A stretch of 64,000 nt of DNA, from contig JAPPFD010000031.1 in the NCBI GenBank assembly GCA_028823995.1, positions 123,877 through 187,876 on the forward strand, in the 5' to 3' direction. Source of the DNA: a bacterium. GTDB taxonomy: Bacteria > Actinomycetota > Acidimicrobiia > Spongiisociales > ZC4RG35. The translations under genes and the position numbers were made by a program. This document shows positions 19,060 to 40,498 of this stretch, one piece after another; the first letter of the stretch is position 1; each line of letters begins with the position of its first letter. The notes below the pieces were generated by a model, which was given only the letters and a program-made list of their open reading frames with translations, made no database searches and had not been told where the DNA came from.

Positions 19060-19114
19060 CCATGAATCGGTTGTCTCAACCCGGGTTGGTCGGTCACCAT
19101 GCGAGGTCCGGCGG

Positions 19115-19978
19115 ATGAGTTGGGACGTCATCGGCCAGCAACTCTGGAACGGTCTTCTCAACGGTTCGATCTACGTGATATTCGCGGCCGGGTTGAGCCT
19201 CGTGTTCGGAGTAATGAGGGTGATCAACATGGCGCATGGCGAGTTGACCATGTTGGGGGCCATGCTTTTGTTCACGGCCACCGATCTGGTGGGATTGGGC
19301 TATTTCACGGGTGCCGCGCTGGTGGTGGTGGTGATGGCCCTGGCCGGATTCCTGGTCAACCGGGTAACGGTCCGCCCGTTCCTGGGGCATTCGGAGTTGG
19401 TGGTGATCCTCTCGACCGTGGCGTTGAGCTTCATGTTGCTGAACGGCAGTCTTGTGGTATGGGGGTCGGGGCCCAAGGGAGTTGATAAGCCTTTCAATGA
19501 GATTGTCCAGGTGGGAGGGGTGTACGTGACCACCGCCAGCGTCCTCCTGGTTGGGGTGTGCTTTGCCGCGGTCCTGGGGTTGTACCTGATGCTGACTTTC
19601 ACCAAGCTGGGGAAGAAGACCCGGGCCACCGGCCAGAACCTGCTGGGTGCCCGTCTGATAGGGATCAATACCACCGCCGTCTATGACACCACCCTGATAG
19701 TGGCGTCCGGATTGGCGGCCCTGGCCGGAGTGTTGATCGTCCTGGTTTCGTCCGCATCTCCCAACCTGGGACAACCCCTGCTCATCACCGGCTTCGCGGT
19801 GGTGATTGTGGCCGGGATGGGAAATGTGGCGGGCGCGGTGGCGGTGGGGTTGTTCATGGGTGTGACCGAGGCGTTGTTCGGCCAGTTCGTCTCCACCTAT
19901 TACCGCCAGGGATACCTGTACGTGGTGATGATCATCGTCCTGCTGCTTCGCCCACAGGGCCTGTTCGGGAGGAAATGA
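19115..19978 (+). CDS. livH: Branched-chain amino acid-type ABC permease (LivH family)
   Basis: 8 TM helices, LivH-like 'INMAHGELTMLGA'. Confidence 0.85.
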   Translation: MSWDVIGQQLWNGLLNGSIYVIFAAGLSLVFGVMRVINMAHGELTMLGAMLLFTATDLVGLGYFTGAALVVVVMALAGFLVNRVTVRPFLGHSELVVILSTVALSFMLLNGSLVVWGSGPKGVDKPFNEIVQVGGVYVTTASVLLVGVCFAAVLGLYLMLTFTKLGKKTRATGQNLLGARLIGINTTAVYDTTLIVASGLAALAGVLIVLVSSASPNLGQPLLITGFAVVIVAGMGNVAGAVAVGLFMGVTEALFGQFVSTYYRQGYLYVVMIIVLLLRPQGLFGRK

Positions 19979-19979
19979 G

Positions 19980-21002
19980 GTGCGGTTGAGAATCCCTCCG
20001 GGGTGGTGGCTGGGCGGTCTGGTGCTCCTGGTGGTCGTGTTGGTACCGCTGTTCCTGTTCACCAACACCTACAACCGCGGGCTGTTGGTCCTGATCGTGA
20101 TATATGCGATCGCCGGGCTCAGTCTCGATTACATCATGGGCGAGATGGGGCAATTCTCCTTCGGACACGCCGCTTTCTGGGGGTTCGGCGCCTATGTCTC
20201 GGCCAAACTGGCACTCGATCTGGGTATTTCCCCGTGGATCGGTTTCCTGGCGGCGCCGGCGGCCGCCGGCCTGGTTGGCCTCCTGATCGGCTACATCGCC
20301 CTGCGCCGCACCCGGAACCTGGAACTGGCGATCGTCACCCTGGGCTTCGGGGTATTGGCCTGGACGGTCGCTCTGCGGTGGCGGCCGGTCACCGGCGGCC
20401 CGTCAGGACTGCGCCAGGTCCCCCCGCCCAGTCTGTTCGGCTGGGAGATACGCTCGGAGTTGGCCTACTTCTACTTCGCCCTGCTGCTCCTGCTGGGCAT
20501 TGTGTTCCTCCTGTCGAGGTTGCGGACCTCCCGCTTCGGCAGAGGCGTACGCAGCATTCATGAGAACGAGGACCTCGCCAAGTCCATAGGTGTGGCGGCC
20601 ACCAAGTACTACGTCCTGGCGTTCTCGTTCGCATGCGCGCTGGTGGGATTCTCCGGCGCCCTTTACGCCCACCACTTCCGGTTCGTAAACCCGAATCTGT
20701 TGGGTCTCGACTACATGTTCATCTTCTTGATAGTCGTCCTGGTGGGAGGGACGGGGACTCTGTGGGGACCGGTAATGGGCGCGGCGATCTTCGTCCTGGT
20801 GAGCGAGTGGCTCCGGGCTCTGCAGGAATATCGCTTCGTGATATTCGGCGTGGTGCTGCTGCTGGTGGTGCTGTTCATGCCGATTGGGGTCTTTCCCGCC
20901 CTGCAGAAGGTTGCGCGGCGCATCAGGGGACGCAGCGATGAGGACACGGACGGCGCCCCGGCGAGCGAAGATCGCGCTCTGGAAGCGGACAGGGCGAGAT
21001 AG
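19980..21002 (+). CDS. livM: ABC permease (LivM family)
   Basis: LivM-like TM profile, 340 aa. Confidence 0.85.
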
Positions 21003-21004
21003 GG

Positions 21005-21772
21005 ATGGCGATCCTTGAAACCACCGGCCTCACCAGGATGTTCGGCGGCCTGTCGGCGGTGGACGAGTTGGACCTCTCGGTTGAGGAGGGGGAGATCCGG
21101 GGTCTGATCGGGCCGAACGGCTCCGGCAAGACCACTGCCCTGAACCTGATAACCGGCTACATCAAGCCCACCCGGGGGATGGTCAGGTACCAGGGCTCGG
21201 ACGTTTCAGGCGAGCAACCTCACGAACTGGCGCGCTTGGGACTGGTCCGCACCTTTCAGATCACCACCCTGTTCGAGAACCTCACCGTTCGGGACAACGT
21301 CGTCCACGGAAGCCATCTCAACAACCACACATCGTTGATGGGGGCCCTGACCAGGTCCAAAAGGTACCGGCGGCAGACTGCGGAGATCGAGGACCGGGTT
21401 CGGGAGTTGCTGGCTTTCGTGGGCCTCGGCGAGCGGATCGACGCGGTGGCTCGTGACCTCTCGGCGGGAGAGCACCGGTACCTGGAGATCGCCATCGCCC
21501 TGGCTGCCAAGCCCAAGGTGCTGCTCCTGGACGAACCGGCCACCGGCCTCAACCCCGAGGAGGCGGCCTATCTGATGAACCTGATCAGGACGCTGCGCAG
21601 CCAGGGCGTCACGGTCCTCCTGGTGGAGCACAACATGCGCCTGATAACCAACATCTGCACACGGATCACCGTGCTCAACTTCGGTGCCAAGATCGCCGAG
21701 GGAACCCCCGAGGAGATAGTGGACAACCCCGATGTGATCACCGCCTACCTGGGGAAACGCCGCGGTGCTTGA
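21005..21772 (+). CDS. livG: ABC ATPase (LivG family)
   Basis: Walker A 'GPNGSGKTT', signature '[12 protein letters not shown]', Walker B 'LLLDEPATG'. Confidence 0.9.
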
Positions 21773-22469
21773 GATCAACGCTCTCAACGTGGCCTACGGG
21801 CGGGTGCAGGTGCTCTTCGATGTCTCGATCAGCGTGCCGGAGGGGGAGTTGGTGACGGTGATCGGAGCCAACGGCGCGGGAAAGACCACTCTGCTGCTCA
21901 CCGTCTCCGGAGTGCTCAGACCCCAGAGCGGCGAGATCTCCTTCGAGGGTGAGAGAATCGACAGCCTCAGACCTCACGAGATAGTCGGCATGGGCCTGGG
22001 CCACGTGCCGCAAGGCAAGGAACTCTTTCCCGCCATGACGGTTCTGGAGAACCTCGAGATGGGCGCTCACATGGTCAACGAGGAGGACGAGTACCGCCGA
22101 CGGCTGGAGCGGGCCTTCGAGTTTTTCCCGCGCCTCTCCGAACGGGCCCGCCAGCGCGCCGGGACCCTGAGCGGCGGGGAGCAGCAGATGCTTGCCATAG
22201 CCAGGGCTCTGATGGCCGAGCCTCGGCTCCTGCTGCTGGACGAGCCGTCGGCGGGTCTGGCCCCGATCATCGTGGACCATCTGGCCGAGATCATCCTCGA
22301 CCTCAACCGCCAGGGGTTGACTGTGCTGCTGGTGGAGCAGAACGCCTTCCTGGCTTTGGAGATCGCCCGGAGAGCTTATGTGATGGAGTCGGGTTTGGTG
22401 GTCGAGAGCGGCGAGACCCAGGATGTGCTCGAGAGCGATCTCGTGCGAAGGGCCTATCTGGGGATCTGA
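21765..22469 (+). CDS. livF: ABC ATPase (LivF family)
   Basis: Walker A 'GANGAGKTT', 'LSGGEQQMLAIA', 'LLLLDEPSAG'. The stop overlaps the next gene (TGATG). Confidence 0.9.
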   Translation: MLEINALNVAYGRVQVLFDVSISVPEGELVTVIGANGAGKTTLLLTVSGVLRPQSGEISFEGERIDSLRPHEIVGMGLGHVPQGKELFPAMTVLENLEMGAHMVNEEDEYRRRLERAFEFFPRLSERARQRAGTLSGGEQQMLAIARALMAEPRLLLLDEPSAGLAPIIVDHLAEIILDLNRQGLTVLLVEQNAFLALEIARRAYVMESGLVVESGETQDVLESDLVRRAYLGI

Positions 22470-24529
22470 TGGCTGAATTCAGAATCGGGGTCGACATCGG
22501 CGGGACCTTCACCGACTGGGTGATGGCCGATTCCGAGGGTGGGGTACAGGTCGTCAAGACCCCCACCACTCCCGATGGGTTCGGGGGAGTCTTCAATGCC
22601 ATGGATGAAGCGGAAGTGACCGGAGACCGGTTCCGCTCTTTCGCTCATGGGACCACCCTGGGCACCAACGCCTTGATAGAAAGACGCCTCCCGCGGGTGG
22701 CCATGGTGACCACCAGGGGAGTCACCGCCGTCCTGACCCAAGCCGCCCGCGGCTCGAAGGAGGACATATGGGACATCTATCACGAGTCCCCCCGTCCCTC
22801 GATCGTCAAGCCGCGAGACCGCTTGGAAGTCACTGAACGGACGCTCAGTTCCGGCGAGGTGCGTACCCCTCTCGACGAGAGGGAGGCCCGGGCGGTGGCT
22901 CGGATCCTGCGGGGTCGGGGCATCCGCACCATCGCCGTGTGCTTCCTGCATTCCTACACCAACGGCCGCAACGAACGGAGGATGAAGGAGATCATCCTGG
23001 AGGAGTTCCCGGAGGCGCTGGTCCGGACCTCCCATGAGACCATTCCTCGCATTCTCGAGTACGAGCGTTTCACCACCACCATCCTCAACGTGGCCCTGAT
23101 CCCGGTGATGATCGATTACCTGCAGGCACTGGAGCAGGGTCTGCGGAGTCGGGACTACCCCGGCGACGTGCTGATCGTGCAGTCGGCGGGAGGCCTGATG
23201 GGGGTGGAGGCCACCTCCAACATCCCGGTCCGTACCGCCAATTCGGGTCCCTCGGCGGGCGCGATCGCGGCCCGAGAGATAGGGGCCCTTGCCGGTTTCG
23301 AGAACATCATCGGCCTCGACATCGGCGGGACCAGCACCGACGTCTCGGTTACCCTCGAAGGCCAGTTGAGGACCACCGAGACCTGGGAGGTGGAGTGGGG
23401 ACATCCGATCATGTTCCCGGCGGTGGACATCATCACCGTCGGAGCAGGGGGAGGGTCGGTGGCGTGGTTCGACCCGGGAGGAAAGCTCCGTTCGGGACCT
23501 CACAGTATGAGGGCCGTGCCCGGACCGGCCTGTTACGGCAAGGGAGGGGACCAGCCCACCAACACCGACGCCCACGTGGTGATGGGGAACCTCCGGCCGG
23601 GCGCCATGTTGGGCGGGGCGATGGAGATCTCACCGGAGCTTGCCCACAAGGTGATCCATGACGGGATCGGTCGAAGGCTGGGCGGCGACACCGTCTCCGC
23701 CGCGGCGGCGGTGATCGCGGTGGCCGAGGCGAACATGGCCAACGCCATCAGGCTGGCCACCATGAGGCGGGGGCTGGACCCCCGCGACTTCGCCCTGGTG
23801 GCATTCGGCGGCGCCGGGCCGTTCCATGGGGCGCGGGTGGCGGCCGAGTTGTCAATACCCACCGTGCTGGTGCCTCCCCGGCCCGGACTCACTTCGGCTC
23901 TGGGTTGTCTCATGGCCGACATCCGCCATGACCTGGGCGCCAGCATGTTCTATGGGGAGGCGGCGGCGGTCGACATCGACGAGATGAACGAGCGTTTTGA
24001 CGAGTTCGACGCCCAGGTACGGGCGGCCCTGGACCGGGAGGGCATTGCGCCGGAGAGCCAGTTCGTGGAGAAGACCATCGACATGTGCTACGCGGGACAA
24101 TGGAGGGTGTTCGCCATCCCGGTCTCCGGAAAGATGACCAGGGAGAGTCTTTCGGAGAGCGTGGAACTCTTCAGGAAGTTGTACCTGCAGAGGTTCACCT
24201 TCGACCTGGGGGAGCGGGAAGTGGAGATCCACGGAATAAACGTCACCGGAACGGGGATCTCCGACAAGTACCGGCCGCAGGCGGCCGAGCAGGGTTCCGC
24301 CGCGGCCACCGCCTCTGCGTCACGTCAGGTCTACTGGCGAGAGGCGGGAGGTTGGGTGGATACGCCGGTGTGGTCCCGGCCTTCCCTGCCGGTTGGGTTC
24401 CGGACCGTGGGGCCGGCCGTGGTGGAGCAGATGGACTCCACCACCCTGGCGCCACCCGGAATGAGTCTTTTTGTGGACCGTCATCTCAACCTGGTGCTCG
24501 ACACCACCGGAGAGGGAGGTGGGGCATGA
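22469..24529 (+). CDS. Hydantoinase/oxoprolinase family, A (HyuA/OplB-like) subunit, copy 1
   Basis: 'VDIGGTFTD' N-terminus, 'GIDIGGTSTD', 686 aa, ATP-dependent hydantoinase A family. Confidence 0.85.
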   Translation: MAEFRIGVDIGGTFTDWVMADSEGGVQVVKTPTTPDGFGGVFNAMDEAEVTGDRFRSFAHGTTLGTNALIERRLPRVAMVTTRGVTAVLTQAARGSKEDIWDIYHESPRPSIVKPRDRLEVTERTLSSGEVRTPLDEREARAVARILRGRGIRTIAVCFLHSYTNGRNERRMKEIILEEFPEALVRTSHETIPRILEYERFTTTILNVALIPVMIDYLQALEQGLRSRDYPGDVLIVQSAGGLMGVEATSNIPVRTANSGPSAGAIAAREIGALAGFENIIGLDIGGTSTDVSVTLEGQLRTTETWEVEWGHPIMFPAVDIITVGAGGGSVAWFDPGGKLRSGPHSMRAVPGPACYGKGGDQPTNTDAHVVMGNLRPGAMLGGAMEISPELAHKVIHDGIGRRLGGDTVSAAAAVIAVAEANMANAIRLATMRRGLDPRDFALVAFGGAGPFHGARVAAELSIPTVLVPPRPGLTSALGCLMADIRHDLGASMFYGEAAAVDIDEMNERFDEFDAQVRAALDREGIAPESQFVEKTIDMCYAGQWRVFAIPVSGKMTRESLSESVELFRKLYLQRFTFDLGEREVEIHGINVTGTGISDKYRPQAAEQGSAAATASASRQVYWREAGGWVDTPVWSRPSLPVGFRTVGPAVVEQMDSTTLAPPGMSLFVDRHLNLVLDTTGEGGGA

Positions 24530-26373: not shown

Positions 26374-27725
26374 CAGACGCCCGTTCAAAGTTCGTAGACC
26401 TGTACACGCAACGCACGCCCGGATCCCTGCGACTCTACGAGGAAGCCAGAAGACACCTGCCTGGCGGCGTCCCCGGAAACGCCGGATTCCGTCCCCCGTA
26501 TCCCCTGTATGTGGAGGAAGCGCGCGGCCCCTTTCTCTGGGATGTGGACGGGAACAAATACATCGACTCGTTGATCGGAGGAGGCCCTCACATCCTGGGA
26601 CACTCACCTCCCGCGGTGATGGATGCGGTGGCCAAGCAACTCTCGTCGGGCACCAGCACCATCGCGCCTTCTCCCAACAACCTGGTTCTGGCGGAGAAGA
26701 TTCGAAAGCACATGCCGCACATGGAGATGATCCGCTTCGTCCACACCGGCTCGGAGGCGGTGCACATGTCGATGCGGGTCGCCCGCGCTTTCACCGGCCG
26801 CCAGAAGATCGGCAAGTTCGAGGGCAACTTCCACGGCGGTTACGACAACCTGCTGGTGAGCGGGACCTCCTTCGCCGGACCCGAGGAGCGTCCGGTCTCC
26901 CTTCCCGAGGGGGCCGGGATACCCCAGAGCGTCCTGGACGACACCGTGGTCCTCCCGTACAACAACACCGACGCCGCGGTGGCCCTGATCGAGGAACACG
27001 CCTCGGAGTTGGCCGGAGTGGTGGTGGAAGCGGTGGGGGGGACCTGGATGGCGGGGATCGTGGCCGACCAGAGGTTCCTGGAGGCGCTTCGGGAGGTCAC
27101 CGCCCACCACGGCATCCTGCTGATCTTCGACGAGGTGATCACGGGGTTCAGGGTCGCCCTGGGGGGAAGCACCGCGGTCACCGGGGTCACCCCGGACCTG
27201 GTGGCGCTGGCCAAGACCATCGGAGGAGGACTTCCGATGGGCGCCTTCGGAGGACGCCGGGACGTCATGGACCAGGTCGTCACTCCTCCCCGGGACGCCG
27301 ACGACAGGCGGGTCACCATCTTCCAGTCGGGGACCTTCCAGACCAACCTGGCCTCGCTGGCGGCGGGGATTGCCATGCTGTCGGAACTGGAGAAACCCGG
27401 CGTCTACGAGAACCTCGAGGAGACCGGCGAGCAGGTGCGAAAGGGCATCGAGAAGATCGGCGCCAACCAGGGACTGCCGGTCCAGGCCACCGGCCAGGGC
27501 CCCATCTTCGGGGTTTACTTCGCTGAAGAACCGGTGCGCACCATCCGCGATGTGCTGGCCAGCGACCGGGAGATGGCGGGGACCTTCTACCTGGGGCTGG
27601 TGGCCCACGGGATATACATCACCCCCTATCACCTCGGCTTCACCAACGCTGCCCAGAGCCAGGCCGAGATCGATCAGGTGCTGGAAGTCTGCCAGCGGGT
27701 GATGGAGACCATCAAGGAGGACTGA
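26370..27725 (+). CDS. Class III (omega) PLP aminotransferase / glutamate-semialdehyde-aminomutase-like, copy 1
   Basis: 'LIFDEVITGFR', 'AKTIGGGLPMGAFGG' (PLP Lys), 451 aa. Confidence 0.85.
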   Translation: MTDARSKFVDLYTQRTPGSLRLYEEARRHLPGGVPGNAGFRPPYPLYVEEARGPFLWDVDGNKYIDSLIGGGPHILGHSPPAVMDAVAKQLSSGTSTIAPSPNNLVLAEKIRKHMPHMEMIRFVHTGSEAVHMSMRVARAFTGRQKIGKFEGNFHGGYDNLLVSGTSFAGPEERPVSLPEGAGIPQSVLDDTVVLPYNNTDAAVALIEEHASELAGVVVEAVGGTWMAGIVADQRFLEALREVTAHHGILLIFDEVITGFRVALGGSTAVTGVTPDLVALAKTIGGGLPMGAFGGRRDVMDQVVTPPRDADDRRVTIFQSGTFQTNLASLAAGIAMLSELEKPGVYENLEETGEQVRKGIEKIGANQGLPVQATGQGPIFGVYFAEEPVRTIRDVLASDREMAGTFYLGLVAHGIYITPYHLGFTNAAQSQAEIDQVLEVCQRVMETIKED

Positions 27726-27770
27726 CGGCTTGATCTGCACGCAGACGCGACCAAAAAGGCCGGGACCGGA

Positions 27771-33062: not shown

Positions 33063-34828
33063 GCCGCTTCCAGGTTGATCCGGTAACGGTCGAGGTGGTG
33101 ACCAGCGGTCTGGCCGCCGGGGCCAGGGAGATGGGCATCACCATGCGTCAAACGTCGAGTTCCACGATCTTCAACGAGGGGAACGACTACTCATGCGGGA
33201 TGTTCAACGCCGAGACCGAGTTGGTGAGTCACGGGGAGTTCCTGCCCATCCATCTGGGCTCCCTTCCCTATTCGGTGAATTACTCCATCGATGAGGTGGG
33301 CGCCGACCAGTTCCGCCCGGGAGACTCCATCATTCTCAACGACCCGTTCCGCGGTGGGTCTCACCTGCCGGACGTGACGATGGTGACGCCGATCTTCTAT
33401 GAGGGAAAGCTGATCGGATGGGGGGCGAATCGGGCCCACCATCTGGATGTGGGAGGAACGGTGCCGGGCAGTTTCTACGCCCAGGCCCGGGAGAACTACC
33501 AGGAGGGTCTGCGGATCCCGCCGGTGAGGCTCATAAAGGAGGGGGAGATCGACGAAGAGATCATGCAGATGATCCTGGCCAATGTGCGACTCCCCGAGAA
33601 CATGCGATCGGATCTCCTGAGCCAAGTGTCGGCCAATCTCACCGCCCGCCGCCGCCTGATCGAGTTGGTGGAGCGGTACGGATTGGAGACCGTGGAGCAG
33701 TGCATGGCGATCGAGATGGACAACTCCGAGCGCCGGATCCGCGCGGCGATCGCCGGATGGCCGGACGGCGACTACTACGCCGAGGACTCCATGGACAACG
33801 ACGGGATAACCGATGTCCCCCGCACGGTCCGGGTGACGGTGAAGGTGCGGGGTGACGGGGTGGTGGTGGACTTCAACGGCACCGACCCGCAGGTGGAGGG
33901 GCCTCTGAACAGCGTCTTGGGCTACACCGCATCGGGTGTCTACATGACCATTCAAGCCGCCACCGATCCCACCATCCCGCCCAATGGGGGGTGTTACCGC
34001 CCGGTGGAGATCATCGCTCCCAAAGGGACGATCGTCAACCCCAGATTCCCGGCCGCCTGCACCGGTGGCAACGAGATCGTCTCGGTGATCCACAACGCTG
34101 TTTACCGGGCGCTGGCGGAGATCCCCCGCGACATCCCCAATCCGGTCCGGTTGATGGCCGCCGATCAGGGTTCGTCCAACAACCTGTTCCTGAGCGGCTT
34201 CGGCGAAGACGGGGAGCGGTTCGTTCTCTACGAGTACCCCGAGGGCGGATGGGGCGGCGCCGAGGGCCGGGACGGCCAGAGCGCCATCTACTCGATCGTG
34301 GGCAACACCTGGAACCTCCCGGTTGAGGCGATCGAGATGAGGTACCCGCTCCGCATCGACCGGTACGAGCTTCGCCAAGACTCGGGAGGTCCCGGAGAGT
34401 GGAGGGGCGGGTTATCGGTCAGACGTGATTACAGGTTGCTTGCCCCCACCGGGGAGTTGTCGGTGCTGGGCAACCGGGTGAGAGTCCCCCCTTACGGTCT
34501 GTTCGGCGGCCACCACGGCGCCCCTGCCCGGTACCGGATCGATGCCGGCACGCCTGATGAACGGCTGGCGGCACCCGAGTTCGGCGCCAAGAAGTCGATG
34601 GTTCCCTTAGAGCGCGACCAGGTGGTTAACCAGGAGACAGCAGGTGGCGGCGGATACGGCGATCCGTTGGACCGGGACCCGGTGGCGGTGGCCCGCGATG
34701 TCGCGTACGAATACATCTCCCGGAGGAGCGCCTTCGAGGACTACGGGGTGGTGCTGGACGATGAAGGTGCACTTGACCGGAAGGGAACTGCATCCCGCCG
34801 GGAAACTCTCAGGGAAAACCGAAGGTGA
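33059..34828 (+). CDS. Hydantoinase/oxoprolinase family, B subunit, copy 2
   Basis: 'NDPFRGGSHLPD', 589 aa, paralogous to 24526-26373. Confidence 0.85.
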   Translation: MSRFQVDPVTVEVVTSGLAAGAREMGITMRQTSSSTIFNEGNDYSCGMFNAETELVSHGEFLPIHLGSLPYSVNYSIDEVGADQFRPGDSIILNDPFRGGSHLPDVTMVTPIFYEGKLIGWGANRAHHLDVGGTVPGSFYAQARENYQEGLRIPPVRLIKEGEIDEEIMQMILANVRLPENMRSDLLSQVSANLTARRRLIELVERYGLETVEQCMAIEMDNSERRIRAAIAGWPDGDYYAEDSMDNDGITDVPRTVRVTVKVRGDGVVVDFNGTDPQVEGPLNSVLGYTASGVYMTIQAATDPTIPPNGGCYRPVEIIAPKGTIVNPRFPAACTGGNEIVSVIHNAVYRALAEIPRDIPNPVRLMAADQGSSNNLFLSGFGEDGERFVLYEYPEGGWGGAEGRDGQSAIYSIVGNTWNLPVEAIEMRYPLRIDRYELRQDSGGPGEWRGGLSVRRDYRLLAPTGELSVLGNRVRVPPYGLFGGHHGAPARYRIDAGTPDERLAAPEFGAKKSMVPLERDQVVNQETAGGGGYGDPLDRDPVAVARDVAYEYISRRSAFEDYGVVLDDEGALDRKGTASRRETLRENRR

Positions 34829-36180
34829 AAGACACCGGACGCCTGGCTCGGAAGGTCGAAGCCCTATATCGAGACCGCACTCCCGGATCCCGGGCCCTGT
34901 GGGAGGAGAGCAGGGGGATCCTGCCCATGGGTGTCTCGGGGGCCGCCAAGTTCTACGAGCCGTACCCGGTGGCGCTGGCCTCCGGGTCAGGGGGGCATGT
35001 GACGGATGTGGACGGAAACGACTATGTCGATCTCCTGATGGGCGCCGGTTCCTCCCTGTTGGGCCACTCCCATCCCTCCGTGGTGGCGGCGGTACGTGAC
35101 CAGATCGGGCGGATGGCCACCGTCCTGGCGCCCGCTCCGCTCGAGCGGGAGTTTGCCGAGCGAATCCGGGGGCTGATGCCGTACCTGGAGCGTCTCCGGT
35201 TTGCAAACACGGGTTCCGAGGCGGTACGCACCGCTCTGCGCGCCGCCCGGGCGGCCACCGGCCGGATGCGCTATGCCAAGTTCGAAGGCAACTACCACGG
35301 TTCCGATGACTACTTTCTCCTGTCCTCGGTCTCGCGGGAGGTGGCGGGACCTCCCCACCGCCCCAAGCCGGTCCCCGACTCGGCCGGGATTCCCGACCGC
35401 ATCCGAGAGGAGACCCTGCTGCTCCCCTACAACGATGTGGAGAACGCGGTGTCTCTAATCTCCGACAACGCCCCCGACCTGGCCGCGGTGGTGATGGAAC
35501 CGGTGGCCTTCTCCAGCGGCGGCGCGGTGGCCGCCGATCGGCACTTTGCCCAAGCGGTCCGGGACGTCACCGCCCAAAAGGGAATCGTGCTGATCTTCGA
35601 CGAGGTGGTGACCGGCCTGCGGCTGGGGACCGCCGGCGCTCCCGGATACCTGGGAGTGACGCCTGATCTGTCCTGCATCGGGAAGGCCATCGGAGGGGGT
35701 CTGCCCCTGTCGGCGGTGGGTGGGCGAGCCGACATCATGGAAACCGTGCTGGGCGCCTCGGCCCACGCCCGGGGCACCCACATCTTCCACTCCGGGACCT
35801 TCACGGGGAACCCGGTCTCGCTGGCAGCCGGGATGGCCGTCCTCGACGTCCTGGAACGGGAGCCGGTGCTCGAACACGTCGACTGGCTGGGCGACAGGTT
35901 GCGCGCCACTCTCCAGGAGGTCCTCGACTCCCACGGGCGGGGTCACATGACCGGATTCGGCTCGATCTTCCAGTTGCATTTCACCGAAGCCCCTCCCCGC
36001 AACCGGCGGGAGATCCTGGCCGGGGACCTCGTCATGCTGGCCTCGGTGCTGCTCGGCATGTGCGCACACGGGATCCTGTGGCCGCCCGTCCACCCGGGGG
36101 TGGTGGCCTTCGCACACACCGAGTCGGACATCGACCGGATCGCCTCGTGCCTGGAGACGGTGCTGGAGATGGCGTCATGA
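34825..36180 (+). CDS. Class III PLP aminotransferase, copy 2
   Basis: 'LIFDEVVTGLR', 'GKAIGGGLPLSAVGG', 451 aa. Confidence 0.85.
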   Translation: MKDTGRLARKVEALYRDRTPGSRALWEESRGILPMGVSGAAKFYEPYPVALASGSGGHVTDVDGNDYVDLLMGAGSSLLGHSHPSVVAAVRDQIGRMATVLAPAPLEREFAERIRGLMPYLERLRFANTGSEAVRTALRAARAATGRMRYAKFEGNYHGSDDYFLLSSVSREVAGPPHRPKPVPDSAGIPDRIREETLLLPYNDVENAVSLISDNAPDLAAVVMEPVAFSSGGAVAADRHFAQAVRDVTAQKGIVLIFDEVVTGLRLGTAGAPGYLGVTPDLSCIGKAIGGGLPLSAVGGRADIMETVLGASAHARGTHIFHSGTFTGNPVSLAAGMAVLDVLEREPVLEHVDWLGDRLRATLQEVLDSHGRGHMTGFGSIFQLHFTEAPPRNRREILAGDLVMLASVLLGMCAHGILWPPVHPGVVAFAHTESDIDRIASCLETVLEMAS

Positions 36181-36929
36181 CCCGAGCCGACCATTCGGAG
36201 CAGCGCAAGGCCGCCATCCTCACCGGTGCAGGTAGGGGCATCGGCAAGGGGATCGCCACCACCCTGGCCGAGCGGGGATACGACCTGGTCATCACCTCCC
36301 GCACCCGCGAGGACCTGGAAGTGACAGGACAACTGGTGGAACAGGTGGGCGGCTCGGCGGCAATCGTGGTTGCGGACCTGAAGGATCCGGACACCCCATC
36401 GGTGCTGCTCGAGACGGCCATCGATCGATACGGTCGCCTGGACGGGCTGGTCAACAACGCGGCCGTCAATGTGTTCGCTCACTTCTGGACCCAGTCCGAG
36501 AGCACCCTCGATGAGACCATCGCCACCAATCTCACCGCTCCCTTCTACCTGTGCCAGGCCGCAGCGAACTACTGGGTCGACAACGGTCGGGGAGGGGCGA
36601 TCGTCAACATCAGTTCGGCGGAGGACACCATCGCCTATCCCGAGCAGGTTCCCTACGCCTGCTCGAAGGGTGGGCTCCTCTCTCTGACCAAGGTGCTGGC
36701 TCTGGAGTGGGGGCCCTTGGGGATCAGGGTCAACGCGGTCAGTCCCGGTTCGGTCGACACCGAGATGACCCCCGACGTCTACCGGCAGGAAGCCCCGAAA
36801 CTGATGCCGATCGGTCGCCTGGGGAGACCCGAGGACATCGGCGCCTGCGTCTTCTTCCTGTTGAGCGACGACGCGGCGTTCGTCACCGGCACGGCGCTTT
36901 ATGCCGACGGGGGGTACATGCTGCAATGA
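36177..36929 (+). CDS. Short-chain dehydrogenase/reductase (SDR)
   Basis: 'TGAGRGIGKG' Rossmann motif, 'NNAA', catalytic 'YACSKGG'. Start at ATG 36177 (ATGA overlap), and the track's 36060 start is an extension. Confidence 0.85.
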   Translation: MTRADHSEQRKAAILTGAGRGIGKGIATTLAERGYDLVITSRTREDLEVTGQLVEQVGGSAAIVVADLKDPDTPSVLLETAIDRYGRLDGLVNNAAVNVFAHFWTQSESTLDETIATNLTAPFYLCQAAANYWVDNGRGGAIVNISSAEDTIAYPEQVPYACSKGGLLSLTKVLALEWGPLGIRVNAVSPGSVDTEMTPDVYRQEAPKLMPIGRLGRPEDIGACVFFLLSDDAAFVTGTALYADGGYMLQ

Positions 36930-37678
36930 GCGGGAAGTTGTCGGGGAAGAACGCCATCGTCACCGGGGTCGCCTCTGGGATCGGGAAGGCCACCGCCGTC
37001 AGGCTGGCGGCCGACGGCGCCAACCTCTTCTGCGTGGATCGGGATGAGGCAGGTCTGGCGCAATTGGTCGGCACACTGGGCGAAGGCCATGTCGGATTCC
37101 CCGCCGATCTGAGCCGGGCCTCATCGTGCCAGGAAGTAGTAGCCGCGGCCCTCGAGCACTGGGACAACCGGATTCACATCCTGGTCAACGCCGCGGCGAT
37201 CCTGATCCGCGAGCCCACCTTGTCCCATTCCAGGGAGGCCTGGGACCTGACCTTCGACGTAAACCTGAGAGCGCCGTTCATCCTCTCCAGGGATGTGGCG
37301 GCGTCCATGATGGAGGCGAGAATCCAGGGAGCCATAGTCAACGTGGCCTCCATCGAGGCGGTGCTTCCCGGTCGCGGGCATGTCGCCTACACCGCCTCCA
37401 AGGGAGCGATAACCATGCTGACCCGCTCCTCGGCTTTCGAGATGGCCCCTTATGGGATCCGCGTCAACGCTGTCTCCCCGGGGGTGATCGCCACCGGCAT
37501 GAACGCCGACCTGCGGGAGGACCCGGAGAGCTGGTCGGAGATGCTGTCCGGCACGCCCATGGGTCGCCACGGCCAGCCCGTTGAGATAGCCGCAGTGATA
37601 GCCTTCCTGGCCTCCGACGACCCGAGCTTTGTCACCGGTGCGATAGTCACCGCCGACGGCGGCTGGACCCTGCATTGA
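36926..37678 (+). CDS. Short-chain dehydrogenase/reductase (SDR), second paralogue
   Basis: 'TGVASGIGKA', 'YTASKGA'. Start at ATG 36926 (ATGA overlap), and the track's 36551 start is an extension. Confidence 0.85.
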   Translation: MSGKLSGKNAIVTGVASGIGKATAVRLAADGANLFCVDRDEAGLAQLVGTLGEGHVGFPADLSRASSCQEVVAAALEHWDNRIHILVNAAAILIREPTLSHSREAWDLTFDVNLRAPFILSRDVAASMMEARIQGAIVNVASIEAVLPGRGHVAYTASKGAITMLTRSSAFEMAPYGIRVNAVSPGVIATGMNADLREDPESWSEMLSGTPMGRHGQPVEIAAVIAFLASDDPSFVTGAIVTADGGWTLH

Positions 37679-37711
37679 ACGCGGCGGCATGGAAGTGAGA
37701 AAAGGCGGGAC

Positions 37712-38857
37712 ATGCGACTGGTGAAGATGCCCCGACTGGGACAGGACATGGAAGAGGGGACTCTCGTGGAGTGGGCCAAGTCGGTGGGTGACGAGGTCTC
37801 CGAGGGTGAGGTCCTGGCGGTGATCGAGACCGACAAGGCAGAGGTGGCATTCGAGTCGCCCGCCGGCGGGTACTTGGTGGCGGTCCTGGCGGATGCGGGC
37901 TCGACGCTGGCCATTGGAGAGCCGATCGCATGGATCGCTGATGATCCCGGTGCGAAGCCTCCCTCCCCGGAGTCGGTCCCCGCCTCGAGTGAGGAGGCGC
38001 CGCAACCCAAGGAGACTCTCACTCCAGAGGCCGCCATCCAAAGAACCCGGCCCCGGCCGGGACGACGGAAGCCGGTCTCGCCCCTGGCCCGCCGCCGGGC
38101 AAGGGAACTGGGAGTCGATCTGGCCGGCGTCGAAGGTACGGGTCCGGGGGGAAGGGTCACCGAGGATGACGTGGTGAATGCCCACCAGGCGGTGCAGGCT
38201 TCCGCCGGGGACTCCGATGATCTGTCTCGAATGCGGCTGGCGATCGCCGCCCGTATGTCCAAGTCGGCAGCGGTTCCCCAGTTTCAACTGGTACGAGAGA
38301 TCGTCCTCGAGAAGCCCGAGGGTCAGGGAGACGGGCCGAGAGTGACCTATACGGACCTGTTGCTTTGGGCCACGGCCGGGGCGCTGGCGGAGAGGCCGGC
38401 GGTCAACTCCAGTTGGGTCGAAGGCAATCCCCCCACGGTCCGATCCCATCCGAGCGTCAATCTCGGGTTCGCGGTGGCTGTTGACGACGGTTTGATCGTA
38501 CCGGTTATCCGAGATGCCGCGTCCCTGTCGCCGGCGCAGATCTCCGTCCAGCGACGCCGGCTGGAGGGGGCGGCTCGCGGCGGGCGCCTGCGTCCCGAGG
38601 ACCTGTCCGGCGGGACCTTCACCGTCTCGAATCTCGGCGGGGCCGGGGTGGACGAGTTCATCGCTCTGTTGAACCCACCGGAAGCGGGCATACTGGCGGT
38701 AGGCGCGGTGAAGCCCAGGCCGGTGGTGGTGGACGGCGCCCTGGTGGCGGCCCCCACCGTGCGGCTTACCCTTACCGGGGACCACCGGGTCTTCGACGGC
38801 ATGGAGGGAGCGAGATTCCTCCAGGCCATCGCCGACCGACTGCAACCCCGGACCTGA
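37712..38857 (+). CDS. Dihydrolipoamide acyltransferase (E2) with one lipoyl domain
   Basis: Lipoyl-Lys motif 'IETDKAEV', Pro/Ala linker, E3-binding-like 'SPLARRRARELGVDL', catalytic 'DHRVFDG'. Confidence 0.85.
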   Translation: MRLVKMPRLGQDMEEGTLVEWAKSVGDEVSEGEVLAVIETDKAEVAFESPAGGYLVAVLADAGSTLAIGEPIAWIADDPGAKPPSPESVPASSEEAPQPKETLTPEAAIQRTRPRPGRRKPVSPLARRRARELGVDLAGVEGTGPGGRVTEDDVVNAHQAVQASAGDSDDLSRMRLAIAARMSKSAAVPQFQLVREIVLEKPEGQGDGPRVTYTDLLLWATAGALAERPAVNSSWVEGNPPTVRSHPSVNLGFAVAVDDGLIVPVIRDAASLSPAQISVQRRRLEGAARGGRLRPEDLSGGTFTVSNLGGAGVDEFIALLNPPEAGILAVGAVKPRPVVVDGALVAAPTVRLTLTGDHRVFDGMEGARFLQAIADRLQPRT

Positions 38858-38894
38858 ACATGACACCTCTAGCATCTGCGACGAAGGGAGCACG

Positions 38895-40166
38895 ATGAGC
38901 CTTTACGAGCCGACATACATGGAGGGCACCCTGGGCACCATGGCCGTGGACTGGGAGGAGCGGATCAACATGGCCCGGATGCGCGACGAGCGCAAGGCCC
39001 GGGCCCAGCACCAGATCGCCGAGGCCGGGCTGGGGTCGGTGCTCTTGCTGGACGATCCCAACATCCGCTACGTCACCGGGCTGGCCATGCTGGGCGGCTC
39101 GGGCGCGGATCACTACAGCTTCCTGACCGCCGGAGGAGACGTGGTGCATTGGGACACCGCCGATCACGCCAGCAACGAGCGCGCCAACTGCCCCTGGCTC
39201 CCCGACATCCGCTACGCGGCCCCCGGACTGGGGAACGTGCCCCGCGCCAGCGGGTCCCCGTCGGCCCGGGAGTTCCTCCTCGACACCATGGCGGACCTGA
39301 TCGTGGGGGCCGCCCACGACTACGACGTTCACCGAGACCCGGTCGGCATCGACTCCACCCAGCCGGCCCTGGCCCGGAAGCTCTCGGAGCGGGGGCTGGA
39401 TGTCCGGGAGGGCGCCGCCGACGCTTTGCACACCGCCCGGCAGACCAAGACCAAGGACGAGATCGAGTGCTTCCGGGTCCTCTCGGCGATCTGTGAGGCC
39501 GGGTTCATGGCCATCAAGAAAGCCGCCGAGCCGGGCATGCTCGAACAGGAGGTCTGGGGAGCGGCGGTGGAGGCCGTCCTGCGCAGGGGAGGGACGGTTG
39601 AGGGAGGGTATCTCACCAGCGGCCCGAACACCTGGCCCAAGCACCAGGCCAACACCACCGACCGGATGCTGCGCCCCGGCGACATAATGTACGCCGACTT
39701 CTACAGCGCCACCTTCCAGGGTTACCGGTCATGTGTCTACCGGACCTTTTCGATAGGAAAGCCCGAGCAGCGCTCCGTTGACGCCTACAAGCGCGCCCGG
39801 GACTGGATGTACGACGTGATCGAGGCCATCCGGCCCGGTGTCACCACCGGCGAGGTGGCGATGCACTTTCCCGACCGGGAGGGCGAGCGCATGGACTGGT
39901 ACGGCGCCAAGGACTACTGGGAGATGACCACCAACCAATGGGCCCACGGACTGGGGCTCCAGCTATATGAGCGCCCGTTGATCTGGCGGGGAATCTCCGT
40001 CGACCACCCGATCGAGATCCAGGAGGGCATGGTCATGGCGGTCGAGACCCAAGAGCCAGACGGAAGCTCCGGCATGCGGGTTGAAGAGATGATCGTGGTC
40101 CGCGAGAACGGCGCCGAGGTCCTAACCCGCTGGCCGGTGGATGAGATAACGGTTATCGATTTCTAG
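38895..40166 (+). CDS. M24-family metallohydrolase (creatinase/prolidase/ectoine-hydrolase-like), copy 1
   Basis: Creatinase_N-like N-terminus. All five M24 metal ligands are present (D..D in 'DIMYADFYSATFQGYRSCVYRTF', His in 'HGLGLQLYE', Glu in 'AVETQE' and 'RVEEM'). Confidence 0.8.
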   Translation: MSLYEPTYMEGTLGTMAVDWEERINMARMRDERKARAQHQIAEAGLGSVLLLDDPNIRYVTGLAMLGGSGADHYSFLTAGGDVVHWDTADHASNERANCPWLPDIRYAAPGLGNVPRASGSPSAREFLLDTMADLIVGAAHDYDVHRDPVGIDSTQPALARKLSERGLDVREGAADALHTARQTKTKDEIECFRVLSAICEAGFMAIKKAAEPGMLEQEVWGAAVEAVLRRGGTVEGGYLTSGPNTWPKHQANTTDRMLRPGDIMYADFYSATFQGYRSCVYRTFSIGKPEQRSVDAYKRARDWMYDVIEAIRPGVTTGEVAMHFPDREGERMDWYGAKDYWEMTTNQWAHGLGLQLYERPLIWRGISVDHPIEIQEGMVMAVETQEPDGSSGMRVEEMIVVRENGAEVLTRWPVDEITVIDF

Positions 40167-40225: not shown

Positions 40226-40498
40226 ATGAACAGAACCATTCCCATAACTCAGTTTCGAAATCAATGCTTGAGGCTCATGGATGAGGTGAAGGCCACCGGT
40301 GACACCCTCATCGTCACAAAGCACGGGCGACCGCTGGCAGCGGTGATTCCTGTTGTGGACGAGCGGTCAAGAAGCATTATCGGATGGAGCAGCGAAATCC
40401 GATTGGGAGATGATTTGACCAATCCGGCCATTCCTCCGGACGATTGGGAGATCGTCTCTCAGCCTGATCGAATTGCGACCAGCCTCCGAGGCGAGTAG
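40226..40498 (+). CDS. Phd/YefM-family antitoxin
   Basis: 'IPITQFRNQCLRLMDEVKATGDTLIVTKHGRPLAAVIP' typical Phd/YefM N-terminus. Low GC (about 50 %). Confidence 0.8.
   Translation: MNRTIPITQFRNQCLRLMDEVKATGDTLIVTKHGRPLAAVIPVVDERSRSIIGWSSEIRLGDDLTNPAIPPDDWEIVSQPDRIATSLRGE

Follow-up and report, generated by a model that had tools for sequence, protein, structure and literature searches.

The enzymes nearest to the paired HyuA/HyuB proteins examined here are ATP-dependent lactam and hydantoin hydrolases. One of these, caprolactamase, requires bicarbonate, and the gating residue is Asp in the hydrolases and in Apc but Glu in acetone carboxylase (PMC8453981). The same work supplied our criteria for the ATP motifs and for the CapB-type Asp-His-Asp-His metal site. 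In the window (the whole 64-kb stretch of DNA analysed), which belongs to a sponge- and coral-associated clade of Acidimicrobiia, two such pairs lie within a block of 17 plus-strand genes at 19115-40166 (Table 1).

Organisation of the locus

Pfam assignments bear out both the 17 consecutive genes, with the families named for them in the sequence-only reading that preceded this analysis, and the IclR, EthD, RidA and LivK genes placed directly upstream on the same strand. The gene order given there holds overall, but not at the 3' end, where it is SDR1-SDR2-E2-M24. The spacing is as tight as had been claimed: about ten of the 16 junctions overlap and the others measure 1-45 nt. Promoter-like or terminator-like sites internal to the block were in no excess over shuffled sequence in the scanned interval 15300-35000. 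From the spacing we infer co-transcription of the 17 genes, and gene content and coupling together support the proposal of a single, densely packed operon of catabolic appearance. Independent gene calls on contigs of the same species, which stop within the CoA-transferase gene, gave identical models from the upstream genes to AT1; the hyuB1 start is an ATG preceded by GGAGG. A palindrome at 19045-19070, weak as evidence, spans the IclR stop codon.

Table 1. Genes of the block and its flanks. The last column gives the distance in nt to the next gene of the block (negative values, overlap).
Feature	Position	Strand	Pfam	Assignment	Distance
Class I/II aminotransferase	14241-15344	+	Aminotran_1_2	possibly an island member; start per independent gene calls on L100	
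Hotdog-fold (4HBT) thioesterase	15370-15780	+	4HBT	possibly an island member; NCBIfam hotdog thioesterase domain	
LivK-type protein	16114-17361	+	Peripla_BP_6	periplasmic substrate-binding protein of importer; no specific match in NCBIfam search	
RidA	17460-17858	+	Ribonuc_L-PSP	enamine/imine deaminase family; NCBIfam Rid family, under cut-off	
EthD	17914-18243	+	EthD	EthD-family protein	
IclR	18259-19059	+	HTH_IclR + IclR_C	IclR-family regulator, 55 nt upstream of livH	
livH	19115-19978	+	BPD_transp_2	permease, branched-chain-amino-acid-type ABC importer	1
livM	19980-21002	+	BPD_transp_2	permease, same importer type	2
livG	21005-21772	+	ABC_tran	ATPase, same importer type	-8
livF	21765-22469	+	ABC_tran	ATPase, same importer type	-1
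hyuA1	22469-24529	+		hydantoinase/oxoprolinase family, ATP-dependent amidohydrolase pair 1	-4
hyuB1	24526-26373	+		hydantoinase/oxoprolinase family, ATP-dependent amidohydrolase pair 1	-4
AT1	26370-27725	+	Aminotran_3	class III PLP enzyme, GSA-aminomutase-like branch	45
CoA-transferase	27771-29003	+	CoA_transf_3	family III, dicarboxylate (SUGCT/mesaconate/glutarate) type	-4
E1alpha	29000-30043	+	E1_dh	thiamine-diphosphate-dependent dehydrogenase subunit, PDH/acetoin-DH-like	-1
E1beta	30043-31035	+	Transket_pyr + Transketolase_C	thiamine-diphosphate-dependent dehydrogenase subunit, PDH/acetoin-DH-like	-4
hyuA2	31032-33062	+		second, divergent ATP-dependent amidohydrolase pair	-4
hyuB2	33059-34828	+		second, divergent ATP-dependent amidohydrolase pair	-4
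AT2	34825-36180	+		second GSA-aminomutase-like class III PLP enzyme	-4
SDR1	36177-36929	+	adh_short	classical short-chain dehydrogenase	-4
SDR2	36926-37678	+	adh_short	classical short-chain dehydrogenase	33
E2	37712-38857	+		dihydrolipoyl acyltransferase: lipoyl, E3-binding and catalytic domains	37
M24	38895-40166	+	Peptidase_M24	Cys-variant "pita-bread" enzyme	
CitE/RipC-like lyase	40964-41836	-	HpcH_HpaI + C-C_Bond_Lyase	acyl-CoA lyase, convergent with the operon	

Our best reading of these genes is that they break down a cyclic amide or a small zwitterion. We give a probability of about 0.5 to a catabolic operon under IclR control that takes up and degrades a small nitrogen-containing ring compound, or a few such compounds, available in the host.

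Conservation and modular composition

The block had been regarded as a one-off. Instead, it is specific to the clade of sponge and coral Acidimicrobiia, with modules recurring elsewhere. All 17 genes stand in the same order in 16 of the 19 related species-level loci, the remaining three ending at contig edges, so the 17-gene arrangement is not due to chance; across the 16 species the order is invariant and the proteins are 70-99% identical. Outside the clade, the nearest HyuA2 is 45% identical.

M24 is more strongly conserved than any other protein of the operon (92-99% identity within the clade, 62-67% to haloarchaeal proteins); in it the second metal-binding Asp is replaced by Cys280, a residue invariant in the alignments. 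Such Cys-M24 proteins form an unstudied enzyme subfamily, recurrent in marine bacteria and salt-loving archaea. On megaplasmids of haloarchaea and on plasmids of Roseobacter and Streptomyces, their genes adjoin those of dehydrogenases and of thiamine-dependent enzymes that cleave C-C bonds, with EthD and IclR genes also found nearby (Haloarcula, Halorubrum, Haloferax, Halogeometricum, Tritonibacter/Phaeobacter and Streptomyces). In Halogeometricum the neighbour is E1alpha-beta, and in Tritonibacter/Phaeobacter the order is SDR-M24-E1alpha-E1beta-lipoyl protein-ALDH-E2, to which Phaeobacter alone adds Lpd. Genes like those on our 5' flank occur there too: EthD flanks the Cys-M24 gene in every haloarchaeal context seen except the contig-edge L084, 4HBT/PaaI-like genes accompany it in haloarchaea, and a class I/II aminotransferase lies close to it in Haloarcula and Halogeometricum. 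The E1 proteins of the operon and those linked to M24 in Roseobacter share 39-43% identity, no closer than would be expected, short of a direct comparison, of a generic PDH E1, and because of this the two modules are analogous and not demonstrably orthologous.

Since the Cys-M24 type keeps such company on these replicons, the operon is modular: an importer is joined to a pair of old HyuAB-aminotransferase modules, to a module of Cys-M24, SDR and E1-E2, and to a CoA-transferase that has the conserved CitE-like lyase beside it. The trio of HyuAB, an amine-removing enzyme and a thiamine enzyme also recurs independently. In a sponge Gemmatimonadetes locus the order is LLM-amine dehydrogenase (DAP_DH_C)-HyuA-HyuB-E1alpha-E1beta; in Sulfitobacter it is HyuAB-ABC transporter-class III aminotransferase-split transketolase; and a HyuB1 relative (61% identical) lies next to an amidase and to a class III aminotransferase. 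An additional set of HyuAB, CN-hydrolase and RidA lies near the block in the related locus L078.

Modularity raises the alternative that two or three independent pathways are merely under one promoter, with HyuAB and the aminotransferases serving a lactam or amino acid, Cys-M24/SDR/E1-E2 a different small molecule, and the CoA-transferase and CitE-like lyase a dicarboxylate. We consider this unlikely, although Roseobacter, Streptomyces and most haloarchaea do have a Cys-M24, thiamine-enzyme and dehydrogenase module that lacks HyuAB, the paralogues are old, and the non-overlapping junctions of 45, 33 and 37 nt are module borders. Moreover, two relatives carry an insertion at the SDR2|E2 border, L078 an LLM gene and L011 a Schlafen-like gene on the opposite strand, and since these are tolerated the 3' module may function independently. 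However, the modules are interleaved and not simply juxtaposed, since the HyuAB2-AT2-SDR block splits E1alpha-beta from E2, and this order is the one that is invariant in 16 species at 70-99% identity. HyuBA also adjoins the Cys-M24 gene in Haloferax volcanii, and HyuAB adjoins E1alpha-beta again in L027.

The Cys-M24 enzyme

Among fold neighbours of the M24 protein, DMSP lyase DddP is closest, followed by ectoine hydrolase; creatinase is also among them, but its relationship to M24 is distant (E=1e-8). These nearest-fold enzymes act on small zwitterions, namely DMSP, ectoine and creatine. The description of M24 as creatinase-like thus fails in detail, given these neighbours and the Cys that invariably takes the place of a metal ligand. 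Besides this Cys the protein retains four metal ligands, and creatinase is not known to have a metal site of this kind.

This bears on a second alternative, a route for a cyclic ureide or guanidine (of hydantoin, creatinine or dihydropyrimidine type). Ring opening by HyuAB would give an N-carbamoyl amino acid, M24 would take off the carbamoyl or amidino group, and the aminotransferases and E1/E2 would turn the amino acid into an acyl-CoA, the two HyuAB/aminotransferase sets serving two substrates or two enantiomers. The remoteness of creatinase and the retained metal site make such a route improbable, as do the absence of carbamoylase, sarcosine oxidase and creatinine deaminase from the block and the CoA-transferase and lyase that it leaves unexplained. 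It would nevertheless accommodate N-methylhydantoinase as the enzyme of solved structure to which both HyuAB pairs come closest, the membership of creatinase in the M24 family, D-phenylglycine aminotransferase in the aminotransferase neighbourhood, and the extra L078 set.

HyuAB pairs and aminotransferases

HyuA1/B1 carry DIGGTFTD and DIGGT as ATP phosphate motifs and the metal tetrad D50/H112/D115/H137, and HyuA2/B2 carry DIGGTFTD, DMGGT and GSDPGP with the tetrad D43/H102/D105/H127. The best PDB matches of HyuAB1 are N-methylhydantoinase 7HK5 and caprolactamase 6YRA_B; HyuAB2 matches 7HK5 at 4e-129 and 6YRA_A at 1e-119, versus 1e-83 or weaker for carboxylases. In agreement with the sequence-only reading, the nearest enzymes are ATP-dependent lactam/hydantoin hydrolases, with acetone and acetophenone carboxylases matching much more weakly, which places both pairs on the hydrolase, not the carboxylase, side of the family. 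Caprolactamase itself was rejected as an identity, HyuA1 and HyuB1 being under the NCBIfam CapA/CapB cut-offs.

That the pairs are ATP-dependent carboxylases (acetone/acetophenone carboxylase type), re-capturing ketones from the decarboxylation of beta-keto acids that beta-transaminase-like enzymes make from beta-amino acids, is very improbable: their homology to carboxylases, the bicarbonate requirement of caprolactamase and an aminotransferase branch that includes beta-phenylalanine and beta-amino-acid transaminases would fit, but they score much worse against carboxylases than against hydrolases, an Asp occupies the gating position (the state of hydrolases and Apc, where acetone carboxylase has Glu; PMC8453981), and the block holds neither a thiolase nor, since all 17 ORFs are assigned, a gamma/epsilon subunit gene.

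Two HyuAB-aminotransferase sets are indeed present, but their duplication is not recent, because the paralogues share only 35-44% identity (HyuA1/A2 38%, HyuB1/B2 35%, AT1/AT2 44%). AT1 scores 396 against the HemL subfamily cut-off of 398 and 372 against the HemL equivalog cut-off of 527, and its PDB matches include GSAM (1e-89) and beta-Phe aminotransferase (5e-63). NCBIfam and PDB put AT1 and AT2 in the GSA-aminomutase/beta-transaminase/D-phenylglycine-aminotransferase branch and not, as had been suggested, with the 6-aminohexanoate/GABA omega-transaminases; therefore the analogy to the caprolactam pathway holds only at fold-class level. The suggested lactam racemases found no support, alpha-amino-epsilon-caprolactam racemase being absent from the 30 PDB matches at E<=1e-30. 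AT1 and AT2 could be mutases instead of transaminases.

Remaining enzymes and proposed route

No catalytic protein of the operon reached a named-enzyme (equivalog) cut-off in NCBIfam. E1alpha, whose best PDB match is human PDH E1alpha, scored 316 against 394 for the PDH E1alpha equivalog; E1beta scored 321.2 against 321 for a subfamily model; E2 was under every E2 equivalog cut-off; and SDR1 and SDR2 matched only generic models (glucose 1-dehydrogenase subfamily, meso-2,3-butanediol dehydrogenase), at or below cut-off. As had been anticipated, the gene combination is unlike known pathways, in that we found no matching curated enzyme model or published pathway. Among the predicted genes scanned in the window (all but about 44.6-47.4 kb) there was no E3. 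The block contains no aldehyde dehydrogenase or thiolase, and several links proposed below are incomplete for this reason.

Judging from enzyme families, degradation of the cyclic amide or zwitterion would begin with uptake through the LivK/HMGF ABC system. The two HyuAB amidohydrolases would then use ATP to hydrolyse stable amide bonds within rings of the lactam, hydantoin or diketopiperazine type, which exposes a carboxylate together with an amino group. The GSA-aminomutase-like PLP enzymes AT1 and AT2 would convert the freed amines to carbonyl groups, with RidA quenching imine/enamine by-products, and SDR1 and SDR2 would adjust hydroxyl and oxo groups. A resulting 2-oxo acid or alpha-hydroxyketone could be cleaved to an acyl-CoA by the PDH/acetoin-DH-like E1alpha-beta/E2, and the DddP-like Cys-M24 may act on a small zwitterion, either the substrate or an intermediate, by cleaving a C-N (or other carbon-heteroatom) bond. 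The SUGCT-like CoA-transferase and the CitE-like lyase would convert a hydroxy-dicarboxylate (malate/citramalate type) to acetyl-CoA plus glyoxylate or pyruvate. The best PDB match of the CoA-transferase is SUGCT 9BR7 and its best NCBIfam matches are succinyl-CoA:mesaconate and succinate-glutarate CoA-transferases, both under cut-off; the lyase, its probable partner, best matches the itaconate-degradation lyase RipC and CitE, again under cut-off, and is retained downstream of M24 in 15 of 17 related loci.

Organization and conservation of the operon

The sequence-only reading described 17 consecutive plus-strand genes of named families, and Pfam searches bear this out across the whole block, in the order livHMGF, hyuA1-hyuB1-AT1, the CoA-transferase gene, E1alpha-E1beta, hyuA2-hyuB2-AT2, SDR1, SDR2, E2 and M24. 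The genes for LivK, RidA, EthD and IclR that it placed immediately 5' do lie there on the same strand, as do, further upstream, genes for a hotdog thioesterase and a class I/II aminotransferase. The 16 junctions measure, in order, 1, 2, -8, -1, -4, -4, 45, -4, -1, -4, -4, -4, -4, -4, 33 and 37 nt. Three open reading frames (ORFs) had ambiguous starts (hyuB1, SDR1 and SDR2), and for each we chose the start that overlaps the preceding stop codon. Gene calls made independently on same-species contigs match our models from the upstream genes through AT1, the genes that those loci cover. The 3' end runs SDR1-SDR2-E2-M24, and the second HyuAB-AT2-SDR block stands between the E1 genes and E2.

Coordinates of the features discussed; positions are those of the window unless a compared locus is named
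Feature	Position	Strand	Remarks	Source
Adenylosuccinate synthetase	4338-5609
AlkZ-like DNA glycosylase	5625-6854	-
Adenylosuccinate lyase	6953-8281
OpuAC protein	8387-9325
BCCT transporter	9322-11091		divergent
694-aa fusion	11377-13461	+	OpuAC (glycine-betaine-binding), SBP_bac_3 and ion-channel pore (Lig_chan/Ion_trans_2)
LivK	16114-17361	+
Imperfect palindrome, 26 nt, CCGATCTACGGCTAGCCATGAATCGG	19045-19070		overlaps IclR stop codon, 45 nt upstream of livH	inverted-repeat scan
17-gene block	19115-40166	+	livH to M24	Pfam
hyuB1, resolved start	24526	+	ATG after GGAGG
SDR1, resolved start	36177	+
SDR2, resolved start	36926	+
M24	38895-40166	+	Cys280 at metal position
Phd/YefM antitoxin	40226-40498	+		Pfam
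PIN-domain toxin	40508-40930	+		Pfam
CitE/RipC-like acyl-CoA lyase	40964-41836	-
Phosphotriesterase-family (PTE/PhP-like) genes	41890-42813, 47391-48305, 55405-56319	+
Second Cys-type M24 paralogue	58186-59454	-	Cys in motif FKSCVYRTY
Zinc alcohol dehydrogenase	59493-60548	-
L011, Schlafen/AlbA_2 + HATPase_c_4 gene	17093-18388	-	at SDR2/E2 junction
L078, luciferase-like oxidoreductase	7838-8818	+	between SDR2 and E2
L087, Cys-M24 gene set	8766-19116		Haloferax volcanii pHV4

When HyuA2 was searched against prokaryotic genomes, one per species, 19 loci matched at 84-96% identity, and the next best match stood at 45%. All 19 come from metagenome-assembled genomes (MAGs) labelled Acidimicrobiia, 'bacterium' or Candidatus Spongiisocius, whose record titles and isolate names suggest sponge and coral hosts. 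The stretch from livG to M24 is complete and in the same order in 16 of the 19 loci, and the other three end at contig edges. The most conserved protein across the clade is M24 (92-99% identity), while E2 and E1alpha fall to 67-75%. The interleaving of the E1 and E2 genes with other modules and the order fixed in 16 species argue that the block works as a single unit and that its modules are not neighbours by chance. The constancy of the 17-gene operon in at least 16 species of a sponge- and coral-specific clade of Acidimicrobiia implies, moreover, that the nutrient it serves is important to that lifestyle.

In a more distant metagenomic relative (L078; M24 83% and HyuA2 76% identical), the order is kept from E1alpha onward, and a gene for an F420/FMN luciferase-like monooxygenase (LLM) is inserted between SDR2 and E2. 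The same junction, 33 nt long in the window, has received an opposite-strand Schlafen-type gene in one species of the clade (L011). The 45-, 33- and 37-nt junctions, together with these insertions, show where modules were joined. Downstream, the CitE/RipC-like lyase gene is convergent with the operon in 15 of 17 loci. A Phd/YefM antitoxin and PIN-domain toxin pair lies between M24 and the lyase gene, and is found in only some of the related genomes (loci L001, L005, L006, L008, L011 and L014).

A megablast search of plasmids with the entire block as query recovered no syntenic block, the sole match being the M24 gene, at 71% DNA identity on a Halorussus plasmid. We rejected the haloarchaeal origin that this match might suggest for the window, as the 16 syntenic loci belong to Acidimicrobiia or to unclassified MAGs of the same clade. 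The closest plasmid-borne homologues of AT2 (Aureimonas, Natrialba) lie in unrelated gene contexts, and a metagenome scan with the IclR protein returned four loci only, all of them uninformative.

Promoter- and terminator-like motifs were not commoner in the block than in shuffled sequence (15300-35000 scanned), and the palindromes that an inverted-repeat search detected in the regulatory gaps were all short and weak. The palindrome upstream of livH may be an operator, although a weak candidate. The window gave no Rfam match, to riboswitches or to any other RNA family, and contains no tRNAs.

The two HyuAB pairs

Both pairs carry the domains of the two-subunit ATP-dependent amidohydrolase family (Hydant_A_N, Hydantoinase_A and Hydant_A_C in the A subunits, Hydantoinase_B in the B subunits; E 1e-9 to 1e-182, above Pfam cut-offs), and no enzyme of the operon attains an NCBIfam equivalog cut-off. 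As motif criteria we used the ASKHA ATP motifs DxGGTxxD, DxGGT and GxxPGP in A and the Asp-His-Asp-His metal tetrad in B, a site that mutagenesis has shown to be essential in caprolactamase (PMC8453981). HyuA2 has all three ATP motifs (DIGGTFTD, DMGGT, GSDPGP), and HyuA1 has the first two (DIGGTFTD, DIGGT) with a near match to the third (RAVPGP); the tetrads are D50/H112/D115/H137 in HyuB1 and D43/H102/D105/H127 in HyuB2. The pairs are old paralogues, with 38% identity between HyuA1 and HyuA2 and 35% between HyuB1 and HyuB2. Among solved structures, N-methylhydantoinase 7HK5 is the best match of all four subunits and caprolactamase 6YRA is also among the top ones; hydrolases score 210-435 bits, versus about 85-280 bits for carboxylases. 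Given these best relatives, the lack of a gamma gene, an Asp as gating residue, caprolactamase scores below the cut-off and the lack of a Cys-Cys platform, we place both pairs as putative members of the hydrolase branch, and assign them no specificity.

The closest characterized analogue is the caprolactamase CapAB of Pseudomonas jessenii with its 6-aminohexanoate aminotransferase. Like the valerolactamase OplBA of P. putida, CapAB is a two-subunit member of the HyuA/HyuB family with the ATP motifs and metal site kept, and a class III PLP enzyme directly follows the pairs here too (PMC8453981, PMC6061476). The analogy with caprolactam and 6-aminohexanoate degradation, drawn from the sequence, stands at the family level only; two defining features of caprolactamase are missing and the PLP enzymes belong to a different branch. 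First, the NCBIfam scores are 453/534 bits for CapA and 248/319 bits for CapB, against a cut-off of 1000. Second, neither HyuB1 nor HyuB2 has a CC dipeptide, whereas a vicinal Cys-Cys disulfide platform is kept in CapB and in the B subunit of the P. putida lactamase (PMC8453981). The gene arrangement differs as well, since here two divergent HyuAB sets are interleaved with E1/E2, CoA-transferase, SDR and M24 genes. The caprolactam cluster is not known to carry genes of these latter kinds.

The ATP-hydrolysing N-methylhydantoinase or 5-oxoprolinase of the 7HK5 type shares the Pfam domain set; however, that enzyme is a fused chain of 1288 aa whereas the subunits are separate here, the sequence match is distant, and partner genes from creatinine metabolism or the glutathione cycle are absent. 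An acetone or acetophenone carboxylase was rejected, as there is no gamma or epsilon subunit gene (all 17 ORFs are assigned elsewhere), the Apc models give scores of 131-321 where 1250-1500 would be required, and the gating residue is Asp rather than the Glu of acetone carboxylase.

PLP enzymes, CoA-transferase and E1/E2

AT1 and AT2 (44% identical) fall in the branch of glutamate-1-semialdehyde aminomutase (GSAM), beta-amino-acid and beta-phenylalanine transaminases and D-phenylglycine aminotransferase, outside that of the GABA and 6-aminohexanoate omega-transaminases, and GSAM, beta-transaminases and D-phenylglycine aminotransferase are their top PDB matches. HemL identity was rejected for both (TIGR00713, AT1 372 and AT2 320 versus 527 bits; PRK00062.1, AT1 396 versus 398, AT2 339). 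Likewise, the suggestion that these proteins could be lactam racemases finds no backing, since alpha-amino-epsilon-caprolactam racemase is absent from the 30 PDB matches of AT1 (E<=1e-30) and the 27 of AT2 (E<=1e-40).

The CoA-transferase belongs to family III (CoA_transf_3, E=2.5e-126, positions 1-366 of 366; Pfam) and scores below the NCBIfam cut-offs for the mesaconate, glutarate, oxalate, formyl-CoA and carnitine equivalogs. It is nearest to dicarboxylate enzymes, namely SUGCT (the best PDB match) and the succinyl-CoA:mesaconate and succinate-glutarate transferases. The combination of a family III CoA-transferase of dicarboxylate type and a CitE/RipC-like lyase conserved beside it resembles the SUGCT/CLYBL- or SmtAB/Mcl-type pairs, but here both proteins are below equivalog cut-offs, there is no hydratase, and the lyase gene is on the opposite strand.

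The heterotetramer-type E1alpha/E1beta and lipoyl-bearing E2 are of the kind found in acetoin and pyruvate dehydrogenases, with SDRs alongside as in acetoin/butanediol clusters. However, six other genes split E1 from E2 here, and the set has enzymes of amide hydrolysis and amine removal as its neighbours. The predicted genes scanned in the window include no E3. A housekeeping pyruvate dehydrogenase (PDH) was rejected on the scores of E1alpha (316 versus 394) and E2 (252 versus 445), E1beta passing only a subfamily model (321.2 versus 321).

The M24 protein defines a Cys-variant subfamily

The most informative single gene of the operon is M24. Its product aligns full-length to DddP by sequence, and its predicted fold (pLDDT 77, pTM 0.81) matches DddP best (TM 0.75), followed by the ectoine hydrolase EutD, prolidases and creatinase. 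Of the five canonical metal ligands it retains D268, H351, E384 and E398, and has Cys280 in place of the second Asp. We define a Cys-variant M24 subfamily by this Cys at the second metal-binding Asp, in the motif GY(R/K)(S/T)C.YRT. All 121 close homologues have this Cys, which occurs also in Roseobacter proteins of 36-37% identity. An alignment of the window protein with 89 full-length representatives of 50%-identity clusters shows the Cys in 67 of the 90 sequences, and at least 66 clusters at 50% identity retain it; these proteins form a sizeable uncharacterised subfamily. Conservation across domains is striking, the window protein being 62-67% identical to proteins of haloarchaeal megaplasmids. 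The window holds a second Cys-type M24 paralogue with 32% identity to that of the operon, adjoined by a zinc alcohol dehydrogenase gene.

DddP, EutD/DoeA and creatinase share with M24 a creatinase_N domain and the two-domain pita-bread fold, and all of them act on small zwitterions, but they are only 18-22% identical to it. The genomic partners of Cys-M24 differ too, being thiamine enzymes and dehydrogenases rather than acu/ddd or doe genes. The DMSP lyase DddP itself was rejected, as NF043017 scores 104.5 versus 600 bits and the second metal Asp of DddP is Cys280 here, in spite of the shared fold. Ectoine degradation was rejected as well, since the protein scores 33-47 bits on the DoeA models, versus cut-offs of 575-613, and the block lacks genes of the DoeB or DoeC type. 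The label creatinase-like given from the sequence did not hold up, with a match to 7YTO at only E=1.4e-8 and a fold shared at 18-19% identity.

Recurring gene neighbourhoods

In Haloarcula, Halorubrum and two metagenomic haloarchaeal contigs, Cys-M24 lies among genes for IclR, EthD, an acetolactate-synthase-like thiamine enzyme and an extended SDR, often with VOC, luciferase-like oxidoreductase, SSADH-like aldehyde dehydrogenase, hotdog thioesterase, CoA ligase, Liv-type transporter and class I/II aminotransferase genes. On Haloferax volcanii pHV4 (L087), the order is IclR-EthD-thiamine enzyme-oxidoreductase-cupin-HD-EthD-Cys-M24, the last of these encoding WP_013035071.1. A convergent HyuB-HyuA-Nramp set, whose HyuB and HyuA are 41-43% identical to those of the second pair of the window, adjoins it, and phenylacetate genes (paaK, thioesterase, 3-hydroxyacyl-CoA dehydrogenase and enoyl-CoA hydratase) are adjacent. 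Cys-M24 adjoins E1beta/E1alpha and an LLM in Halogeometricum. Plasmids of Tritonibacter and Phaeobacter carry the series substrate-binding protein-SDR-M24-E1alpha-E1beta-lipoyl protein-ALDH-E2, followed by Lpd in Phaeobacter, and a Streptomyces plasmid carries oxidoreductase-M24-ALDH-VOC-fused E1alpha-beta-E2-flavin reductase-LLM. No thiamine enzyme was seen near Cys-M24 within the stretch examined in Halorussus, Paenarthrobacter and Rhodococcus.

The HyuAB genes also have recurrent partners. A locus of sponge Gemmatimonadetes has the order LLM-amine dehydrogenase-HyuA-HyuB-E1alpha-E1beta, and Sulfitobacter has HyuAB-ABC-class III aminotransferase-split transketolase. The trio of HyuAB, an amine-removing enzyme and a thiamine enzyme thus occurs independently in these two contexts. 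A relative of HyuB1 (61% identity) is encoded beside an amidase and a class III aminotransferase.

A proposed catabolic pathway

From family membership and gene context, on which every step depends, a modular operon for catabolism is the best reading of the block. The importer would take up the substrate, the HyuAB pairs would drive the opening of stable cyclic amides with ATP, the PLP enzymes would remove the liberated amino groups ahead of redox adjustment, and E1/E2 would perform a thiamine-dependent cleavage to an acyl-CoA; the dicarboxylate CoA-transferase and the lyase would add a branch, and the DddP-like Cys-M24 would act on a small zwitterion. Diketopiperazines, substituted pyroglutamates or oxopipecolates, hydantoins and hydroxy-pyrrolidones are each compatible with parts of the gene set, and none with all of it. 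Proline-containing diketopiperazines are abundant in sponges. A bolder reading, tentative at a probability of roughly 0.3, is that of an undescribed pathway for a host-derived N-heterocycle, with proline-containing diketopiperazines as one class of candidates, in which HyuAB would open the ring, a step whose enzymes are otherwise obscure, and that Cys-M24 with a thiamine-dependent C-C-cleaving enzyme would make up a widespread unrecognised module for a common small zwitterion of marine or hypersaline habitats, shared by sponge Acidimicrobiia, marine Roseobacters, Streptomyces and haloarchaea.

The sequence-only reading could match the gene combination to no pathway that it named, and we reach the same result: for creatinine/N-methylhydantoin, ectoine, acetoin, acetone carboxylase, PDH, HemL and DddP, either cut-offs are missed or partner genes are lacking. 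We came across no account of either the cluster or the Cys-M24 module in the literature on sponge Acidimicrobiia, caprolactamase clusters, hydantoinase/lactam operons, diketopiperazines, Haloferax and Roseobacter, and a 2013 study describes diketopiperazine-cleaving enzymes as then largely unknown (PMC3852281). We class the block as an uncharacterised, clade-specific catabolic operon built from known enzyme families; what it adds is a lead to an unstudied M24 subfamily and to a recurrent module testable in cultured organisms. Since Haloferax volcanii, which is amenable to genetics, and Phaeobacter inhibens, which is in culture, both carry Cys-M24 with consistent gene partners, its function is directly accessible to experiment. 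What sponge symbionts feed on is a central open question in holobiont biology. Few substrates are known for ATP-dependent lactam and hydantoin hydrolases, a list that two divergent pairs with dedicated downstream enzymes would lengthen, and the pairs could give biocatalysts for stable lactams.

Other genes in the window

Three phosphotriesterase-family genes lie within 15 kb, at least two of them beside components of SBP_bac_5/Opp-type ABC transporters and with a GntR regulator nearby, which suggests repeated units for the uptake and hydrolysis of lactones or esters. The 694-aa fusion looks, from its domains, like a betaine-gated iGluR-like channel, and its gene adjoins those for a divergent BCCT transporter and an OpuAC protein. 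Finally, an AlkZ-like DNA glycosylase gene is located between the genes for adenylosuccinate synthetase and adenylosuccinate lyase.
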